Part shown: piece by piece, positions 2,279-43,567 of the stretch
How positions within the stretch are numbered: position 1 is the first letter of the stretch
How the letters are laid out: every line of letters starts with the position of its first letter
Source: a phage
Direction: 5' to 3' (one strand)
Length of the DNA stretch: 64,000 bases
Sequence record: PZ386951.1
The notes under the pieces: model-generated
The model's input: only the letters and a program-made list of their open reading frames with translations
Told to the model about the DNA's origin: nothing
Database searches by the model: none
Position numbers and translations under genes: made by a program

Positions 2279-2842
2279 TTACCATTCCAATGCTAGTTTT
2301 TTGAGTTGTTTCTGTTCTTTTACGTTCTTAGTCACTTCTTTCAAAAAATCATCCGTGACTAAACCTTTTAGTTCTTTTAATACTAAAGGTAGTTTTCCAT
2401 TTTTAGTAAGAATTGATTTATAGTTAATTGCATCATTTGTGTTAACTTGATACCGTTTAGCAAGTAACTTAATAATCAATACTTCGGTGGAATCTTCAAC
2501 TAGTTTTGCCCATTTACCATATCTTTTACCACGAGGAACTGCAGCCATTAGATAATTAAAATGGGCTTCATCACTTAAGCCTGATCCAATTAAATTCATA
2601 GCATATACGGCTGGCATGCACTCCGGAAATTGTGATAATGCATTTTCAACCATGAATTTTGAATAATCTTTTTGAGCAATAGAGCATTTAGTTTTATTAT
2701 TAATAGCTCCAATTATTTCAAAAAATTCATTTTCAGCTTTTTCTTTAAAAGAATCAGCAGCGGATTGAACAGCTGTCCAATCTTTTGAATACCAAGCAAC
2801 TTGATGCTCGTTTAATTGAATATCATCTTCAAATAAGCTCAT
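2279..2842 (-). CDS. 62: clamp loader subunit gp62
   Basis: 187-aa ORF immediately downstream of gp44 with 1-nt spacing; T4 synteny and size. Confidence 0.85.
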
Positions 2843-2843
2843 A

Positions 2844-3803
2844 TCACTTCCACTGCATTTCGCATGCCAATTGAATGAAAAGATATGCTAAATGTAACTC
2901 AGTATTAGCCGCAATTCCATGATACTGGTTATTTTCACCAACAATTTCATACATACGAATAATACTTTGCGGAGTTACACGTGTATAGATTTCTTCGGCA
3001 AGTTTACCCACGAACCACGAATAATCGGCTGCATATTTTGGTGCTAAAGCTCTGAGTTGTTTAACATCTTTATTTTTGAGAGACTCAAGAACATCATCAA
3101 TAGCACCACGATCGTTAGTAACCAGTGATAAAATACCAGCATCCAAAACACCTTTAGATGAATAACTATCGAGCTCACCAATAGTTTTACGAAAATCAGG
3201 AAAATTCTTTTTAACCAAAGCTGCTACAACTTTCATATCAGCTATAGCAATACCTTCATGTTTACAGATTTCAGTCAATCGACGAATCATCTGCTTCATC
3301 ATTTCAATTTTATCTTCATCGGTCGGTTGACCGAACGTAATAACTCGGCAGCGTGACTGAAGTGGTTTAATAATACCATCAATATTGTTAGCAGTAATAA
3401 TAATACTACAGTTTGAACTATAAGCTTCCATAAAGGAACGAAGATGTCGCTGAGACTCTGCTAGCCCTGAGCGGTCAAATTCATCAATAACAATTACTTT
3501 TTGACGACCATCAAATGAAGCTGCACTAGCAAAATTAGTCAAAGGACCGCGAACAAAATCAATTTTACAATCTGATCCATTCACAAACATCATATCAGCA
3601 TTTACATCATGACACAATGCTTTTGCTACAGTTGTTTTACCTGTTCCTGGAGAAGGAGAATGAAGAATAATATGTGGAATCTTACCTTTACTTGTAATAG
3701 ATTTAAAGGTTTCTTTATCAAAGGCGGGAAGAATACATTCATCGATAGTAGATGGACGATATTTCTGTTCAAGAATGTGTTCTTTTTCATTTACGGTAAT
3801 CAT
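2844..3803 (-). CDS. 44: clamp loader AAA+ ATPase gp44
   Basis: Walker [11 protein letters not shown], Walker B VIVIDEFD; start taken at internal MITVNEK (319 aa) rather than the 324-aa track ORF. Confidence 0.9.
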
Positions 3804-5425: not shown

Positions 5426-5811
5426 TTATTAAACTCGGCCACAATTGTTTCCGCAACAATTTGTGCAGCAACAATCAGACGTTCATCTGCATTACCACAA
5501 TAATCATCTTCAAGGCGTTCACCGCATGAAGTCATAATAAATTTAGCACCGGCGTTTAGGGATTCTGTAGTATGTTTGCGCATTAGTTCAATCCATTTAT
5601 TACTTACTTCACGATCGATAGCTTCATAATACGCATGACGAGCAGGTGCAGATTTAATTTTGTTCTGAATAACTTCCATTGCGTTATCAGAAAGAGACAA
5701 AACCCATGCTCGACGAATTTTATTTTGGTTTTGTGGATTTGATTCAGAACGCACGTGTTTTGGCTGAATATCTTTTACGTCAACAGTATAATTCACAGTA
5801 ATTTTAGTCAT
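5422..5811 (-). CDS. rpbA: RNA polymerase-binding protein RpbA
   Basis: 129-aa ORF in the T4 rpbA position; size and sequence consistent with recall. Confidence 0.75.
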
Positions 5812-5820
5812 AATACACCT

Positions 5821-6009
5821 TTAGTCATAATAATCAGTAACAGTCCAAGCTTCATTTCTATTGGACATTATTTTTGTATATTCTGCTTTAAATGCATTCC
5901 TAAGCATAGATTCAGTAACTATATGCTCTTCATTAGAAAAATTATTTCTCAGAATATATCGTTTTATTTCAGGAATAGTTAATAGATGCTGTCCAGTTGA
6001 ATATTCCAT
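5821..6009 (-). CDS. hypothetical small protein (T4 45.1/45.2 position)
   Basis: 62-aa ORF on the coding strand between rpbA and gene 46. Confidence 0.4.
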   Translation of the reverse strand: MEYSTGQHLLTIPEIKRYILRNNFSNEEHIVTESMLRNAFKAEYTKIMSNRNEAWTVTDYYD

Positions 6010-6064: not shown

Positions 6065-7747
6065 TTAAACCATTACAGTAAATCGACCGACTTTCTTCAT
6101 TTGAAGATGCTGACCATATTCTTGCGGGTCATGGTCTTTATGCGAAATTATAAAAACATTAGTGTTTTTCATTGAATTTATAATATTAGCTACACCTTTA
6201 ATACCTTCGGCATCAAATGACCCATCAAACACTTCATCAAGAATTAATGTACTAATACTAACACCAGATACGATAGAAGCAATATCACGCCAAGTAAATA
6301 AAAGAGCAATATCGATTCGTGCCTTTTCACCTTCACTAAATGAAGCATAACTAAAATCTTCACGACCACGGGATTTAATTGTCTCATTAAATTCTTCATC
6401 TAATGTAAACACATAATCCGCTTCCATTATTTTAAGATAATGGTTAATCTGCTTATTAAATAATGGAATGTACTTTTTAATAATAGCACCTTTAATACCA
6501 GAATCTTTGAGCATATCAGTCAAAATTCCTCGGTGATATTTTTCCATTACTAAATTAGTTTTTGTCTTAACAATTTTATCAAGTTCTTCTTGAAGCAGTG
6601 CTATTTCGTCAGCATGGTCAATAAACTCAGAAGATGCTTTTTCTATAGCTGCTTTAACTTTTTTGGCTTTATCTACCGTCGTGATTAGAGATTGCTTTTT
6701 ATTGCGAATATCATTTGCCAACGACTGCTGGGTTTTAATATTATCTCGGTATTCATCAACAAGAACTTTTAAATTATCACGATGTGTTGAAAGCTGTTCA
6801 AACGAATGCGTACATTCAGAAACTTTATCTTTAATTTTAGAAACAACTTTATCACCGGAACTCAATTGTGACAAACAGGTTGGACATAATCCACCTTCGT
6901 GATACATATTAATGACTTTATTATATGAGTCAATTTTTGATTTAATTAAAAATGCTTCTTGACCGATTTTATTAAATGCATCAGTCGGGTCTTCATCCAA
7001 AACAATATTAACTAATCTTTCATTAGCTTCTTCTATTTCCGATTTTAGCGTTCTAGCTTCTTTTGCCAAATCATCATACATATTTTGTAGACGAGTAAGG
7101 TTGTCACCCGTTAATTTTTTCTGGCGTTCAACGTTATCATTATATATTTTAATTTGTTGGATAATACTATCTTTTTTAACATCAAGCACTTGGTTTTGTG
7201 AATTTAATTCACGTATTAGTGCTTTATTAAGCTTATCCATTTCAGCTAATGTTCCTACCTCAAGCAGGTCTTCCACAAGCTTTCTTCGCGCAGGGGTCGA
7301 CAAACCCATGAAAGGGGTATACCCTGCTGTACCAAGGACAACAATCTGCTTGAAACTGGCATATGACATTCCGATAAGCTGTTCAAATTCTGCTTGGAAA
7401 TCTTTACTGCTGGCAGATTCATTAAGACGTGTACCGTTAACGGTGATTTCGAAAACGTTTGGTTTTTGTCCTCTTTTGATATAGTACTTTTTCTCATCAT
7501 ATTCCATCCACAGTTCAACTAAAAGTTCTTTCTTATTTGTGCTGTTTATTAATTGACCTTTCTTTACATCACGGAATGGCTTGCCAAAAAGCCCAAATGT
7601 GATGGCTTCTAACATAGTAGACTTACCACCGCCATTTCGTCCAGTAATAAGAGTTTTTTGAACCTTATCTAATTGAATGTCAATCCCATTTTGACCAACT
7701 GACATTATATTTTTATATTTTACTCTATTAAGTTTAAAATTCTTCAC
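6065..7747 (-). CDS. 46: recombination/repair nuclease ATPase subunit gp46 (Rad50/SbcC-like)
   Basis: 560 aa; Walker A GRNGGGKST near N-terminus, long coiled coil with CPTC zinc hook, C-terminal signature/Walker B LILDEVFD. Confidence 0.9.
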   Translation of the reverse strand: MKNFKLNRVKYKNIMSVGQNGIDIQLDKVQKTLITGRNGGGKSTMLEAITFGLFGKPFRDVKKGQLINSTNKKELLVELWMEYDEKKYYIKRGQKPNVFEITVNGTRLNESASSKDFQAEFEQLIGMSYASFKQIVVLGTAGYTPFMGLSTPARRKLVEDLLEVGTLAEMDKLNKALIRELNSQNQVLDVKKDSIIQQIKIYNDNVERQKKLTGDNLTRLQNMYDDLAKEARTLKSEIEEANERLVNIVLDEDPTDAFNKIGQEAFLIKSKIDSYNKVINMYHEGGLCPTCLSQLSSGDKVVSKIKDKVSECTHSFEQLSTHRDNLKVLVDEYRDNIKTQQSLANDIRNKKQSLITTVDKAKKVKAAIEKASSEFIDHADEIALLQEELDKIVKTKTNLVMEKYHRGILTDMLKDSGIKGAIIKKYIPLFNKQINHYLKIMEADYVFTLDEEFNETIKSRGREDFSYASFSEGEKARIDIALLFTWRDIASIVSGVSISTLILDEVFDGSFDAEGIKGVANIINSMKNTNVFIISHKDHDPQEYGQHLQMKKVGRFTVMV

Positions 7748-8007
7748 AAAAGATTCCTTTTAATGTATCTTTTAGACCATTCTATCATATCATCATAATC
7801 TAAAAAGTATTCATCAAATTCAGCCATGCAAACAACGCCTTGTGCTGTTTTTGATGTGATATAAATTATTCCAACATATCTAGAATCTTCTTCGGTATAA
7901 TCAATGTTTGCTATGAATTCATCATTAATGTCAAATGTCGAAAACTTCACAGTATGCATCCTTAATACAAGATACAGCCATATCTCGTAATGATTTAGGT
8001 GTGTCAT
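7744..8007 (-). CDS. hypothetical protein (46.1 position); true start may be internal
   Basis: 87-aa ORF; overlaps the next ORF by 77 nt unless started at internal Met. Confidence 0.35.
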   Translation of the reverse strand: MTHLNHYEIWLYLVLRMHTVKFSTFDINDEFIANIDYTEEDSRYVGIIYITSKTAQGVVCMAEFDEYFLDYDDMIEWSKRYIKRNLL

Positions 8008-24703: not shown

Positions 24704-25672
24704 TTATTTCAGAAGAGTAACCTCAGCAATTTCTTCCCAACCGTTTTTGTCGGTCATAATAAAGTCAGCAAGATAAAGTGCAGTACGCAGTGAAACATTG
24801 CGTAAACGATTAACATTGACTTTCATCCATGATAATGCTTTATAAGTTTCTTCATCAGAAAGACCGCGCTTTTGCATCATGTCAGTTGAAAGAATAACAT
24901 CTTCAACCCTGACCATAATTTCTTCATTAGTGTGAACACCCAAATCCAAATAAACTGAGCGGGACACTAATGCTTGTAAATGTGGAGCAAGTTTAGTACC
25001 ACGGTCTAATTCGCGGTCAATGTCAACGTTTGTGATAAAAACAATCGTTCCTTTAAATTCAAACTCACGCTCAATGCCTTTTTCTTCTAAGTAAGAAGAT
25101 GCAGTGCTCCAGCAGACTTTACGGGTCTCTCCGGTGTCCAGAGCAGCTTTCAGAAGATTAAGAATGTCCATATCAGAGAAAACATCCACATCATCAATCA
25201 AAAGGACAGAATTCTCTTCACGATTATTCCAGAGCTGTTCATAAAGACCGATACCAGAGATTTTACCGTTAATGCTTTTATACTCAATGTATCCAATATC
25301 ATTTGCTTTATTTAAAGCTTTATCTAAAGAATACGTTTTACCAATACCCGCCGCACCAGAGATAATTAATGAACGAATGTTTCCGTTAATAATACCATTC
25401 GTCATCATTCCCATAACATTAAATCTTTTATTAATGCGGGTTTTCATATCTTCATATGATTCTTTAACTTCTTCAACTTTTACACCATCATATGAAATGT
25501 CTGATTTGTAAACCCAAACACCACGACGTTTACCGTCAATTTCAACAAAAACTTTACCATCTCCTTGTGCATCTACCGGAGCATTATCTGGGAACCATTC
25601 GCCTAAGAGCTCAAAAGTTCCAGAGATTTCTTTACCGAAGTAGATACCCTTATTGATAGTTACAGTTTTCAT
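24704..25672 (-). CDS. putative AAA-type P-loop ATPase
   Basis: Start taken at MKTVTINKG (322 aa); Walker A GAAGIGKT, Walker B VLLIDDVD, sensor-like TIVFITN. Confidence 0.55.
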   Translation of the reverse strand: MKTVTINKGIYFGKEISGTFELLGEWFPDNAPVDAQGDGKVFVEIDGKRRGVWVYKSDISYDGVKVEEVKESYEDMKTRINKRFNVMGMMTNGIINGNIRSLIISGAAGIGKTYSLDKALNKANDIGYIEYKSINGKISGIGLYEQLWNNREENSVLLIDDVDVFSDMDILNLLKAALDTGETRKVCWSTASSYLEEKGIEREFEFKGTIVFITNVDIDRELDRGTKLAPHLQALVSRSVYLDLGVHTNEEIMVRVEDVILSTDMMQKRGLSDEETYKALSWMKVNVNRLRNVSLRTALYLADFIMTDKNGWEEIAEVTLLK

Positions 25673-25710
25673 TTTTATTCTCCAAATCTGTATCAGTAGT
25701 TGATAGTTGT

Positions 25711-25740
25711 ATAGTACCATAAAGCTTTATGCTTGTAAAC
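25711..25740 (-). promoter_or_regulatory. sigma70-type early promoter within a repeated cassette
   Basis: On minus strand GTTTAC, 18-nt spacer, TACTAT. Confidence 0.5.
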
Positions 25741-25770
25741 AACTTTGTGAAAAATTTTTGAAATAAAAAT

Positions 25771-25786
25771 GGAGCCCGAAGGCTCC
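25771..25786 (-). promoter_or_regulatory. GC stem-loop (UUCG loop) downstream of the nucleotidyltransferase ORF
   Basis: ggagcc cgaa ggctcc inverted repeat. Confidence 0.45.
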
Positions 25787-25789
25787 CTA

Positions 25790-26803
25790 TCATTTATAAT
25801 AACTTCGGTGGTTTTCAAGATAGACCTTCTCAAGGAAGTCATCCCAGAAACTCATGTCTACTTTTTGCTGCATACCGTTCTTAGAAGCTTCAGTAGATGC
25901 TGCTTCTACTTGATCGACCACATCTTCCAAAAACTCTTGAACCGTTTTAAATGGATGTTTACCCAACTTCACGTCGAGAATAAATGGAGCATCTTGGAGT
26001 GGATAAACTAAGTCGCCAGTTTTGTAAATTTCCAATAGTTGGAGTCCACCACGGCAAGCATGACTCAGAGCTTTCCAGTCAATACCTTCATTGGCTTCGG
26101 CCTTACGAGCACGTTCACCATATTCAGCATCTAATTTGTTCAGTGACTGCTTAAGCTCAATAAGAGAAAGCGTTGTCTGATATTTACGACCCAACACAGT
26201 GTAGAACGTTTGTGGGCCTGTTTTCTCATGATTATGGAACACCCATTCACAGAATTCGTTTTCTGGAAGACGATGCTTAATATCTTCAACTTTAGTGCGA
26301 CGCTGCTTAATGGAACCGTCTTCTTGGTAATCAACCCATTGCTCGGGGATTTGATTAACTACTTTCAATACATCACGTAATGCAGCCAAACGAGAACCCT
26401 TGACACCGTATTTAGAAGCTTGCTTGCGGACATATCCTAAATAGGATTTCATGTTAGTCGTATAAAAACGAGAACGGTTGTCTTGAATAAACTTCCACAC
26501 GTCAGGCAAATCAGATTTAACAACTAGTTCAGGTGGAGTGTGGAGCATATCCAATGCTACAGTTTCACCATCTGCTGCTAATTTAAAGAAATACTTAAGA
26601 CTATACAATTCGTGGTCAATATCATCTTTAGTGTTTTTAGATGATGTGTTGTTGGTATTTTTACTCATATGCTCTTTAACATTTCCGATAAGAATATCGC
26701 GAGCAGGAGGAATAAAGATTTCTTTAAAATCTACATCAGATTCTGGAGTAGAAGTTCCATAAAGATGACTACCAAAATAGCTTTTCATTACTGTTTTCAT
26801 CAT
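25790..26803 (-). CDS. putative Pol-beta-superfamily nucleotidyltransferase
   Basis: 337 aa; N-terminal GSHLYGTSTPESDVDF fits the GS-x(9-13)-D-x-D NTase signature, with a further acidic residue in DDIDHE. Confidence 0.55.
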   Translation of the reverse strand: MMKTVMKSYFGSHLYGTSTPESDVDFKEIFIPPARDILIGNVKEHMSKNTNNTSSKNTKDDIDHELYSLKYFFKLAADGETVALDMLHTPPELVVKSDLPDVWKFIQDNRSRFYTTNMKSYLGYVRKQASKYGVKGSRLAALRDVLKVVNQIPEQWVDYQEDGSIKQRRTKVEDIKHRLPENEFCEWVFHNHEKTGPQTFYTVLGRKYQTTLSLIELKQSLNKLDAEYGERARKAEANEGIDWKALSHACRGGLQLLEIYKTGDLVYPLQDAPFILDVKLGKHPFKTVQEFLEDVVDQVEAASTEASKNGMQQKVDMSFWDDFLEKVYLENHRSYYK

Positions 26804-27261
26804 TCAGCCTTATATTCAATAACAGGACATACTTTAGCTTTACGCGCTTTTAAAAATTCGACGATAACCGATTTCTTGGGTTGAATAGGAGGTAAACCCT
26901 TATACGCCCTATCAATATTTTCTACATGTAAAGCATAATCCTTTTTCCATTTATAATCTTTATATTTTTCATGCAGTTGTGCAGGAATAACAAATGAACC
27001 AATAATAAGTAAAACAAGCAAAATGGCAAGTATAAATGCTGATGGAATAAGAGTCCATAAACTACCAAAAATAAGCCATTTCTGTATGATTTCTGCGCAG
27101 ATAATAGTTAGACCTGCGAGTATAGTACATCCGAAAAAAGAAACGAAAAATGTAGGAATAACAATAGACCAAAAGTATGCACACAGTGTCTTAGGTCGTT
27201 TCCATTCGTCGTTAAACATTTTGAATAATTTATAATGCCAAGAGCTTTCATTAATAATCAT
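26800..27261 (-). CDS. membrane protein, translationally coupled to the nucleotidyltransferase
   Basis: 153 aa with 3-4 predicted TM helices; stop overlaps NTase start by 4 nt. Confidence 0.5.
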   Translation of the reverse strand: MIINESSWHYKLFKMFNDEWKRPKTLCAYFWSIVIPTFFVSFFGCTILAGLTIICAEIIQKWLIFGSLWTLIPSAFILAILLVLLIIGSFVIPAQLHEKYKDYKWKKDYALHVENIDRAYKGLPPIQPKKSVIVEFLKARKAKVCPVIEYKAE

Positions 27262-27263
27262 AA

Positions 27264-27785
27264 TTATCCTTTCATTGAAGGTGTAACAGTTGTTAAATAC
27301 TTAATCATAGCTTCAGCTTCTGATTTTGACAATGAAATTTCTCCATTGTTTTGACGAATAGAAATAAAATCCGGATGACGGTCACCACCAGCTTTTAAAA
27401 CACACATATAAGTATCAGTTTCATCTTCAATATCTGAAATGATTGAAGCAGTTCCGCATGAATGTGGTTTTTGATAAATCAATGCAGCTTTTCTTCCACC
27501 GTTTGACTGTTCATAAACTTTTAACACATCAAACAAATCACTTCTTTTATCAATAGCTAAGATGTTGTTTTCATCTTCAATGTTAAATCCTTCGGATACT
27601 TCATAAAGTGTCACCCATAAATCGCCAATATCAATGACAGCATTCACCTTTCCATGATTTTCAAGAGCATTACAAATTTTCTTAATTTCATCATAACTCA
27701 TTTTAATAATATCATCTCCTTGAATAAAGAAGATGTCATTTTTAAATTCAACGCGAATTAAACCACTTTCACTTGAAATAAACAT
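27264..27785 (-). CDS. hypothetical protein (tandem paralog pair, member B)
   Basis: 173 aa; C-terminus SEAEAMIKYLTTVTPSM resembles neighbour. Confidence 0.45.
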   Translation of the reverse strand: MFISSESGLIRVEFKNDIFFIQGDDIIKMSYDEIKKICNALENHGKVNAVIDIGDLWVTLYEVSEGFNIEDENNILAIDKRSDLFDVLKVYEQSNGGRKAALIYQKPHSCGTASIISDIEDETDTYMCVLKAGGDRHPDFISIRQNNGEISLSKSEAEAMIKYLTTVTPSMKG

Positions 27786-27791
27786 ATTTCC

Positions 27792-28349
27792 TCACTTTGA
27801 AATCATAGTTGGAATGACAGAATCAAGATAAGTCTTTAGCGCAATAGCTTCGTCTTTGGTAAATGTGACAATATGCGATCGAAAATCGTCAATTTGACGA
27901 ATAGTTAAGACATCTCCCTCTTCATAACATTTTGATACATTTAAAAGAGTTTCATCATTCTGATTGCAAGCGTTAGTAATAATAGCATTGCAATTTTTGA
28001 GCCATTTTAAACTATGTTTTCTTTCATTAGAATAATAAAAATATTTAATCTTAGCTATAAAACTATCCCAATGGATAACTGATAAACACATTGACTCACT
28101 TTTAATATTAAATCCTGGGCATGAAGAATAAAAATGAATTTTGTGCTCATCATTGATGCTTACTATTTTATCAGTATAAGGATATTCAATTTGGGTTAAA
28201 TGAATAATTTCACTAGGTGTAAAATACATCATATCGTCTTCTTGCGTCAAACGATACATATTATTTACTTTTTCTATAGCCAATTCACCAAAAAGTGGAC
28301 TAACTTCTAATACTAATCGTTTCATATTGATTCTCTTCGACTCGCTCAC
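27792..28349 (-). CDS. hypothetical protein (tandem paralog pair, member A)
   Basis: 185 aa; C-terminus DEAIALKTYLDSVIPTM resembles neighbour. Confidence 0.45.
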   Translation of the reverse strand: MSESKRINMKRLVLEVSPLFGELAIEKVNNMYRLTQEDDMMYFTPSEIIHLTQIEYPYTDKIVSINDEHKIHFYSSCPGFNIKSESMCLSVIHWDSFIAKIKYFYYSNERKHSLKWLKNCNAIITNACNQNDETLLNVSKCYEEGDVLTIRQIDDFRSHIVTFTKDEAIALKTYLDSVIPTMISK

Positions 28350-42279: not shown

Positions 42280-42355
42280 TGGTCGAGGCAGTAGGGATCG
42301 AACCTACGACCTAGGACTTAGAAGGTCCTTGCTCTTCCTTCTGAGCTATGCCTCG
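42280..42355 (-). tRNA. tRNA-Arg (anticodon UCU)
   Basis: Hand-folded cloverleaf: acceptor CGAGGCA/TGCCTCG, anticodon loop CTTCTAA, T-loop TTCGATC, encoded CCA. Confidence 0.8.
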
Positions 42356-42359
42356 GATT

Positions 42360-42434
42360 TGGCGGACGTGATAGGATTCGAACCTATAACCAATCGCTTA
42401 ACAGGCGATCGCTCTGCCATTGAGCTACACATCC
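42360..42434 (-). tRNA. tRNA-Asn (anticodon GUU)
   Basis: Hand-folded: anticodon stem ATCGC/GCGAT, loop CTGTTAA, T-loop TTCGAAT, encoded CCA. Confidence 0.7.
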
Positions 42435-42438
42435 AAAT

Positions 42439-42525
42439 TGGTGGGGAGTGATGGAGTCGAACCACCCGAGTCGCAATGACAATGGATTTACAGTCCACAC
42501 CGCTACCTCTACGGGATAACTCCCC
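42439..42525 (-). tRNA. tRNA-Tyr (anticodon GUA), class II with long variable arm
   Basis: Hand-folded: acceptor GGGGAGT/ACTCCCC, anticodon loop CTGTAAA, long variable arm, T-loop TTCGACT, encoded CCA. Confidence 0.65.
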
Positions 42526-42537
42526 TAATTCATAATT

Positions 42538-42612
42538 TGGTGGCCCTGGGTGGAATTGAACCACCATCTGGCGATTATGAGTCGCTTGCTTGAACCTTCC
42601 AGCTACAGGGCC
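42538..42612 (-). tRNA. tRNA with CAU anticodon (Ile2 lysidine-type, as in T4, or Met)
   Basis: Hand-folded: acceptor GGCCCTG/CAGGGCC, anticodon loop CTCATAA, T-loop TTCAATT, encoded CCA. Confidence 0.7.
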
Positions 42613-42621
42613 AAATTTTTC

Positions 42622-43107
42622 TTATTTTATGTAATATTTATTTAAAAACTTTCTAGCTTGAGTGTGGCTAACATTTATAGCATTTGCATAATTTTTAATA
42701 AAACCTCGTTCATCCATATTAAAATTTTCTAATATTTTTAATCGTCTAGTTATCTCATCTTGACTTAAAGTACTTGCATTATTTTTAGAAATTTTTTCTA
42801 AGGACTGAACTGAGTGTTTTCGACCACTAAAATTAAAATTTTTAGATTTTGGAGGAAATCTATCATTTAGTCTGGCATCTTTTGTATTTTGATTATTGGT
42901 TGCGCAATATATGTTATTTAATGAATACGGTCCTTTATCACCAAAACGACACATGCAGTATTCATGACCCTTTCTTCCACGCTTATCATAATTTCCCGTT
43001 GATTTCCACCAATGCAACCACTCATCAAAAGTTAAATTCCATTCAATGTTTCTACGTATAGCAGAATTCCGCTGAGAAATATATTTTGCATAATCTTCTT
43101 TCATCAC
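42622..43107 (-). CDS. putative HNH-like homing endonuclease embedded in the tRNA cluster
   Basis: 161 aa; HEYCMCRFGDKGPYSLNNIYCATNNQN resembles a degenerate HNH/His-Me finger; C-terminal helix-turn-helix-like segment; sits between the two tRNA subclusters. Confidence 0.45.
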   Translation of the reverse strand: MMKEDYAKYISQRNSAIRRNIEWNLTFDEWLHWWKSTGNYDKRGRKGHEYCMCRFGDKGPYSLNNIYCATNNQNTKDARLNDRFPPKSKNFNFSGRKHSVQSLEKISKNNASTLSQDEITRRLKILENFNMDERGFIKNYANAINVSHTQARKFLNKYYIK

Positions 43108-43151
43108 AAATTTCTCTACTTATTACATACACTAAGCTAAATCAGCAAAAC

Positions 43152-43241
43152 TGGCGGAGGCGATAGGATTTGAACCTATGAGTCGCCGGAGCGACTGCCG
43201 GTTTTCAAGACCGGTGCATTAAACCACTCTGCCACGCCTCC
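43152..43241 (-). tRNA. tRNA-Ser (anticodon UGA), class II
   Basis: Hand-folded: acceptor GGAGGCG/CGCCTCC, anticodon loop CTTGAAA, long variable arm, T-loop TTCAAAT, encoded CCA. Confidence 0.8.
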
Positions 43242-43243
43242 AG

Positions 43244-43317
43244 TCTCCACGGCAGGATTTGAACCTGCGACATTCTGCTCCCAAAGCAGACGCTCTACCA
43301 AACTGAGCTACACGGAG
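43244..43317 (-). tRNA. tRNA-Pro (anticodon UGG), CCA not encoded
   Basis: Hand-folded: anticodon stem TCTGC/GCAGA, loop TTTGGGA, T-loop TTCAAAT; 3' end abuts tRNA-Ser without CCA. Confidence 0.7.
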
Positions 43318-43327
43318 TAAATTAAAT

Positions 43328-43401
<74 letters not shown>

Positions 43402-43406
43402 AAATT

Positions 43407-43493
43407 TGGTGCGAGAAGTGGGACTCGAACCCACAAGGAAATCATTCCGCAGCATTTTAAGTGCTGTGCCTTTACCAATTTGACCATTCTCGC
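43407..43493 (-). tRNA. tRNA-Leu (anticodon UAA), class II
   Basis: Hand-folded: acceptor GCGAGAA/TTCTCGC, anticodon loop CTTAAAA, long variable arm, T-loop TTCGAGT, encoded CCA. Confidence 0.8.
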
Positions 43494-43494
43494 G

Positions 43495-43567
43495 CTGGGA
43501 ATAAAGGACTCGAACCTTTGCATCTAGCAGTCAAAGTGCTATGCCTTACCAACTTGGCTAATTCCCA
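43495..43567 (-). tRNA. tRNA-Gln (anticodon UUG), CCA not encoded; 1 nt from tRNA-Leu
   Basis: Hand-folded: acceptor TGGGAAT/ATTCCCA, anticodon loop CTTTGAC, T-loop TTCGAGT. Confidence 0.75.

Follow-up and report, generated by a model that had tools for sequence, protein, structure and literature searches.

A stretch of 64,000 nucleotides from a phage (sequence record PZ386951.1; hereafter the window) carries, at positions 24,704 to 27,261, three neighboring open reading frames (ORFs) for a small membrane protein, a nucleotidyltransferase (NTase) and an AAA+ ATPase. An original prediction, made from the sequence, grouped them as a possible host-takeover or counter-defense module, and the question is whether they belong together. 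The answer favored here, with somewhat better than even confidence, is that the three genes evolve, and most likely act, independently, as an RlaP-type RNA-repair NTase, a separate AAA+ ATPase and an exchangeable membrane gene. The features on which the analysis turns are as follows:

26800-27261, minus strand: small membrane protein, 153 amino acids, two to three transmembrane (TM) segments (from the ORF, hydropathy and PHROG matches)
25790-26803, minus strand: NTase, ortholog of T4 NrdC.11, 337 amino acids (336 from the second ATG), Pfam RlaP, phrog_388
25761-25786, minus strand: intrinsic-terminator-like hairpin GGAGCC-UUCG-GGCUCC followed by a T-run, three bases past the NTase stop codon
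25711-25739, minus strand: promoter of the sigma-70/T4-early type, TTTACA-17-TACTAT with TG before the -10 hexamer, for the ATPase gene
24704-25672, minus strand: AAA+ ATPase, ortholog of T4 NrdC.10, 322 amino acids, phrog_1250

The region from 24.3 to 27.8 kb was matched at the DNA level in 764 T4-like phage records, the best at 97-98% identity, and the window is a T2/RB27-like Tequatrovirus. In T4 annotation the ATPase gene is nrdC.10 and the NTase gene nrdC.11; the stretch is part of the T-even 'nrdC-mobD' accessory region. The three ORFs are not products of chance, because about 0.1 inter-stop intervals of at least 153 codons are expected per 64 kb at 35% GC (our estimate) and because tblastn found homologs of the membrane protein in 861 phage records, of the NTase in 1519 and of the ATPase in 1312. 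In GenBank, NrdC.10 and NrdC.11 are widely labeled 'thioredoxin' and MobD.x proteins 'molybdopterin-guanine dinucleotide biosynthesis protein MobD'; the labels seem to have been taken from the gene names nrdC.x and mobD.x, and are probably errors passed on through many phage records.

Linkage of the three genes

The membrane ORF is a multi-TM protein as predicted, with two hydrophobic stretches (approximately residues 25-65 and 62-98) from which hydropathy gives two to three TM segments. It matched phrog_944 (C-terminal part) and phrog_22816, and a word-based search for homologs returned close relatives only. DNA homology with T4 stops at the NTase start codon. In place of window positions 26805-27766, which hold the membrane gene and a y05I-like gene, T4 has the mobD HNH homing endonuclease (positions 2451-3258 of the T4 locus, L003), and in another relative (L005) the whole segment is gone, a deletion of about 1.9 kb. 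Homology with both phages picks up exactly on both sides of the segment, and the NTase is 97-98% identical in both, although neither has the membrane gene. The segment just before the NTase start codon is a site at which cassettes are exchanged, and the membrane protein is one occupant of this slot. Several close relatives have a frameshifted or truncated membrane ORF, a T2 record matching it in two pieces, and proteins of 85-135 amino acids are predicted elsewhere, which suggests that the gene is dispensable.

The predicted four-nucleotide overlap that would couple translation of the membrane gene to that of the NTase is present as ATGA (26803-26800), the membrane gene ending in TGA at 26802-26800 and the NTase starting with ATG at 26803-26801. 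An alternative in-frame NTase ATG at 26800, the start annotated in relatives, would reduce the overlap to one nucleotide. The ATGA overlap recurs in Tequatrovirus-like and Mosigvirus-like phages, which speaks for a partnership. A TM-containing ORF abuts the NTase in only 19 of 78 viral NTase loci, however, and in 4 of 72 cellular loci one abuts it upstream; in many other viral loci, and in most other T4-like phages, the gene that meets the NTase in such a stop/start overlap is an unrelated soluble ORF. This makes the overlap a matter of T4-style gene packing and not of partnership.

Between the NTase and the ATPase lie a terminator and a promoter, as had been anticipated for the ATPase gene. 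The NTase stop codon (TGA, 25792-25790) is followed by the hairpin, which has a folding free energy of -13.6 kcal/mol (z = -3.2 relative to shuffled sequences, none of which folded as well). The hairpin is kept in T4, and in a JS98-like phage a compensatory double change from G:C to A:U preserves the stem. The -35 element, GTTTACAA, is invariant in the five phages compared. A Shine-Dalgarno sequence, GGAG, at 25683-25680 precedes an ATG at 25672, and since this start is also used in T4 and relatives, the ATPase most likely begins there (322 amino acids) and not at the first ATG of the ORF, at 25720; the predicted gene was corrected to this start. The hairpin, the -35 box and the ATPase start are conserved in T4 and relatives. 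In one close relative (L001, YUEEL01) a DUF4031 protein and a small ORF separate the NTase terminator from the ATPase promoter (L001 positions 5442-5851), and in another (L004, approximately 7012-7870) the terminator-promoter gap holds extra genes; such extras measure 0.5-0.9 kb in close relatives, which makes the intergenic spot an insertion hot spot.

Many T4-like phages of enterobacteria and Acinetobacter share the order membrane gene, NTase, ATPase, all on one strand. Among the 78 viral NTase loci, the ATPase lies downstream in 34, at a spacing that varies from about 110 bp to 2.3 kb and sometimes includes inserted genes, and a homolog of the membrane gene occurs in 48 (upstream in 47). 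Seen from the ATPase, the linkage is slighter: an NTase lies within 8 kb in only 3 of 80 viral ATPase loci, and a separation of about 40 kb between the two was seen on one contig. No NTase lies near the ATPase of the jumbo phages PAC2 and Muenster or of the Vibrio phage Va3, and the ATPase was found in none of 79 cellular NTase loci. Conservation of the three-gene arrangement had been set beforehand as a test of the grouping, with absence of co-conservation as grounds for giving it up, and the genes are not co-conserved: T4 has mobD in place of the membrane gene, 44 of the 78 NTase loci have no ATPase within 6 kb, and no NTase lies within 8 kb in 77 of the 80 ATPase loci. By this standard the three-gene group is refuted; the grouping is not supported.

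NrdC.11 and the RlaP family

The 337-residue NTase was predicted to carry a Pol-beta signature, and it does: the ORF contains YFGSHLYGTSTPESDVDF, and 61 diverse homologs (34-54% identity) all keep residues G11, S12, D23, D25 and D63. The same holds for several basic residues in the helical domain (R231, K244, H248, R251 and K279). An AlphaFold model (predicted local distance difference test score, pLDDT, of 94) has an N-terminal alpha/beta domain and a helical C-terminal domain that ends in a long helix (317-336), with a beta-rich insert at residues ~155-209. In this model D23 and D25 stand on either side of the start of strand 24-31; D63, on strand 62-68, lies beside the DxD strand, so that the third catalytic acidic residue, whose absence had been named as a possible refutation, is in place. 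The model thus describes a Pol-beta-fold enzyme with a complete catalytic set (G-S, DxD and third Asp).

The protein is 99% identical to its counterpart in T2, 99.7% in RB27 and 98-99% in T4. It matched Pfam RlaP (PF10127, COG3541) at 44.6 bits (gathering score 23; E = 1.9e-11) and phrog_388, 'nucleotidyltransferase', with E = 3.9e-137. When 1.8 billion cluster representatives were searched in full, 3450 related clusters emerged, most of them full length. By these matches NrdC.11 is placed in the RlaP family and predicted to be a template-independent nucleotidyltransferase. The original prediction had considered nucleotide-signal synthases and nucleotidylating modifiers; the family points elsewhere, to nucleotide addition at RNA 3′ ends, and no match to CD-NTase, SMODS, OAS or other signal-synthase families with an adjacent effector was found for the NTase. 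Searching the model against the Protein Data Bank (PDB) with Foldseek gave weak generic NTase matches only. Sequence searches of the PDB with single proteins, profiles and the NTase N-terminal domain (the last at E = 10) found nothing relevant in a version without PfRlaP. PADLOC returned no match for any of the three proteins, and literature searches for nrdC.10 and nrdC.11 under alternative names found nothing.

The NTase domain of NrdC.11 was noted already in 2006 (PMC1524935), and a December 2025 preprint lists T4 NrdC.11 as a PF10127 member, in cluster 5 (PMC12776372). In that work two Pseudomonas RlaPs (PfRlaP and PaRlaP) added one or two nucleoside monophosphates (NMPs) to RNA 3′-OH ends, preferring Mn2+ and accepting neither DNA nor E. 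coli proteins as substrates; with their help a tRNA missing a nucleotide can be aminoacylated again, and the preprint proposes that RlaP counteracts ribotoxins that, like RloC, excise a nucleotide. A 2021 survey predicted for jumbo phages that RlaPs restore nucleotides before ligation and found that their distribution mirrors that of RNA ligases (PMC7824862).

Cellular relatives of NrdC.11 are consistent with these proposals. Eighty cellular loci were fetched, and the NTase ORF was recovered and analyzed in 79; the encoded proteins are full length and 32-54% identical. An RNA-repair gene is adjacent to the NTase in 12 of the 79, mostly on the same strand and in several directly upstream. The adjacent genes encode Pnkp (kinase-phosphatase-ligase) with or without Hen1, RtcB, or a kinase-phosphatase-Rnl1 fusion, and representatives were confirmed by Pfam. 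This is the association that defines the RlaP name, and the window NTase resembles RlaP further in its score above the PF10127 threshold, in its G-S, DxD and third-Asp set and, as modeled, in its order of domains, NTase first and helical domain second.

In phages, NTase counts by host genus are about equal to those of the T4 RNA ligase Rnl1, and ATPase counts diverge. The counts are of phage records by host-genus label, not per genome:

Klebsiella: NTase 286, Rnl1 287, ATPase 149
Shigella: NTase 83, Rnl1 83, ATPase 76
Aeromonas: NTase 75, Rnl1 77, ATPase 48
Acinetobacter: NTase 69, Rnl1 69, ATPase 72
Enterobacter: NTase 56, Rnl1 56, ATPase 36
Vibrio: NTase 59, Rnl1 54, ATPase 121

The Vibrio counts do discriminate, separating the NTase/Rnl1 pair from the ATPase.

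These observations suggest a place for NrdC.11 in T4 tRNA repair, the pathway by which Pnkp and Rnl1 counter PrrC and RloC. Rnl1 is encoded by the same phage lineage and is annotated as repairing tRNA in restrictive prr hosts together with PseT. In the proposed sequence of events, a host anticodon nuclease would cut a tRNA, RloC-type enzymes also stripping a nucleotide from the cut end. T4 Pnkp would heal the ends to 3′-OH and 5′-phosphate, NrdC.11 would add one or two NMPs to the 3′-OH of the 5′ fragment, with two metal ions bound by D23, D25 and D63, and Rnl1 would then seal the break. Of these steps, those of Pnkp and Rnl1 are established for T4. For the nucleotide-addition step we infer a role of NrdC.11 from its family membership, from the biochemistry of the two Pseudomonas enzymes and from the cellular neighborhoods; Rnl1 requires a 3′-OH end, and the 3′-OH left by RlaP is a substrate for a 5′-phosphate ligase of this kind.

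Several points weigh against this assignment. The assayed RlaPs fall in cluster 1a and NrdC.11 in cluster 5 at E = 1e-30 (PMC12776372), the Pfam match spans only NTase residues 7-135, that is, the N-terminal domain, and the beta-rich insert sets NrdC.11 apart. The NTP (nucleoside triphosphate) specificity of RlaP is low, so restoration of the correct nucleotide would be inefficient. The phage gene is not adjacent to a ligase: phage NTase loci show no conserved RNA-repair neighbor within about 5 kb, and clustering of the neighbors recovered general T4 synteny only (rI, tk and a macro-domain gene). The match of genus counts is crude and could be explained if both genes are near-core in these lineages. 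The classical pathway handles single cuts of the PrrC type without NrdC.11, whose part in it is putative. A T4 deletion from nrdC.11 through mobD.3 is viable, and the literature searched yielded no phenotype.

NrdC.10 and the remaining alternatives

The ATPase has the predicted motifs, GAAGIGKT within ISGAAGIGKT (Walker A) and VLLIDDVD (Walker B). The protein has an N-terminal beta domain of approximately 65 residues, an AAA+ core and a helical lid, and its model has a pLDDT of 88. It has the features expected of an AAA+ protein (Walker A and B, sensor 1, arginine finger and sensor 2, an alpha-beta-alpha core and a helical lid), and among its homologs the Walker A motif, the Walker B motif (DD), the sensor-1 Asn, a likely arginine finger (R238) and the lid arginines are invariant. 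It is 99% identical to T4 NrdC.10 and 55-65% identical between phages of distant host genera; the 1312 phage records include jumbo phages (Wroclawvirus and Alcyoneusvirus). All of its matches to Pfam were under threshold. An AAA motif in NrdC.10 was noted in 2006 (PMC1524935). Because all catalytic motifs are present, including the putative arginine finger, NrdC.10 is probably an oligomeric ATP-driven remodeler; it would be transcribed separately and early from its own promoter, and its N-terminal beta domain probably picks the substrate.

Whether NrdC.10 is an accessory factor of phage DNA replication or recombination, such as a loader or remodeler, was considered, and this is judged an unlikely but serious possibility. 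The protein weakly resembles DnaA/Hda, ORC/Cdc6 and clamp loaders in sequence and fold, and an early promoter lies upstream of its gene. In an environmental T4-like lineage its neighbors include UvsW (53 loci), the RecA-like UvsX (26) and gp32 (14), and in Vibrio phage Va3 it is flanked by nrdA/nrdB/glutaredoxin on one side and a topoisomerase II subunit on the other; these neighborhoods hint at DNA metabolism. The UvsW/UvsX/gp32 synteny was taken up as a strong functional clue and dropped on clustering at 60% identity, since 69 of 77 environmental homologs fell into a single cluster and the synteny thus represents one or two lineages only. In T4, moreover, nrdC.10 is not near replication genes.

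For the NTase, nucleotidylation of a protein or small molecule, in the manner of kanamycin or lincosamide nucleotidyltransferases or of the MNT antitoxin (for example, AMPylation of a host HEPN RNase toxin), is quite improbable. The resemblance is one of architecture, a Pol-beta domain followed by a helical, HEPN-like C-terminal domain. All matches to these families were weak and below the family thresholds, that to the type VII MntA model NF047752 covering only 18 residues at 13.2 bits (cutoff, 60), and no conserved HEPN neighbor of the NTase was found in the phage (78) or cellular (79) loci, in the latter of which homologs adjoin RNA ligases and end-healing enzymes and not HEPN toxins. The Pseudomonas RlaPs, for their part, labeled RNA and not E. 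coli proteins or DNA (PMC12776372).

That membrane protein, NTase and ATPase cooperate as one module has very little probability left. The shared gene order, the 34 and 48 of 78 loci with an ATPase or a membrane-gene homolog, and the ATGA overlap argue for it; replacement or loss of the membrane gene beside an almost unchanged NTase, the unrelated genes that overlap the NTase alike, the variable spacing, the terminator and promoter between NTase and ATPase, and the solitary ATPases argue against it, and the phyletic and synteny data already largely refute it. What stands of the host-takeover and counter-defense proposal is a plausible counter-defense role for the NTase by itself, by way of RNA repair and in an already described family.

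Hailong consists of a membrane channel, HalA, and an NTase, HalB, that makes oligo-dA. That the membrane protein and NTase form such a pair, or that NrdC.11, not or not only a tRNA-repair enzyme, is a HalB-like template-independent oligonucleotide synthase whose products, perhaps with the co-translated membrane protein, act as decoys that keep DNA-gated Hailong-type host channels closed, is in either form hardly credible: the NTase is by sequence a PF10127 member of 337 residues and not of the HalB family (HalB has 217 residues and belongs to another Pfam family), no sequence relationship between the two and no conserved TM channel partner of the NTase were found, PADLOC gave no match, and the cellular homologs adjoin RNA-repair genes and seldom a TM ORF.

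Surrounding features and significance

Upstream of the membrane gene, two tandem paralogs on the minus strand (27264-27785 and 27792-28349) each carry the Pfam domains T4_y05I_N and T4_y05I_C, described as 'putative transcription factor' of the MobD.1 family; T4 retains only one y05I-type paralog in the corresponding region. Farther along, at 42280-43567 on the minus strand, nine tRNA genes of the window are clustered: Arg-TCT, Asn-GTT, Tyr-GTA, 'Met'-CAT, Ser-TGA, Pro-TGG, Gly-TCC, Leu-TAA and Gln-TTG. In T4 the tRNA genes number eight, with none for Asn or Tyr, and the two sets appear to differ, which could bear on tRNA-cutting defenses. The GC skew changes sign near position ~48000, consistent with a switch from leftward- to rightward-transcribed genes.

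NrdC.11, NrdC.10 and the small membrane gene are three separate known genes and no new module; the finding is ordinary and largely already known, and the idea of tRNA repair of the NrdC.11 type is in the literature. Added here are the observations that the NrdC.11 subfamily itself, beyond the assayed Pseudomonas cluster, adjoins Pnkp/Hen1, RtcB and Rnl1-type ligases in cells; that the host-genus counts of NrdC.11 closely match those of Rnl1 in phages; and that NrdC.10 is spread over 1312 phage records with complete AAA+ motifs and no linkage to the NTase. Widespread (more than 1300 phage records), conserved and outside Pfam families, NrdC.10 is a reasonable target for functional work, and NrdC.11 is better studied alone than within a three-gene unit. 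If the reading of NrdC.11 as an RNA-repair NTase is true, the protein may supply a third, so far missing, enzyme to the classical T4 tRNA-repair pathway; this would account for the way in which T-even phages could withstand anticodon nucleases that, like RloC, remove a nucleotide to defeat simple re-ligation.

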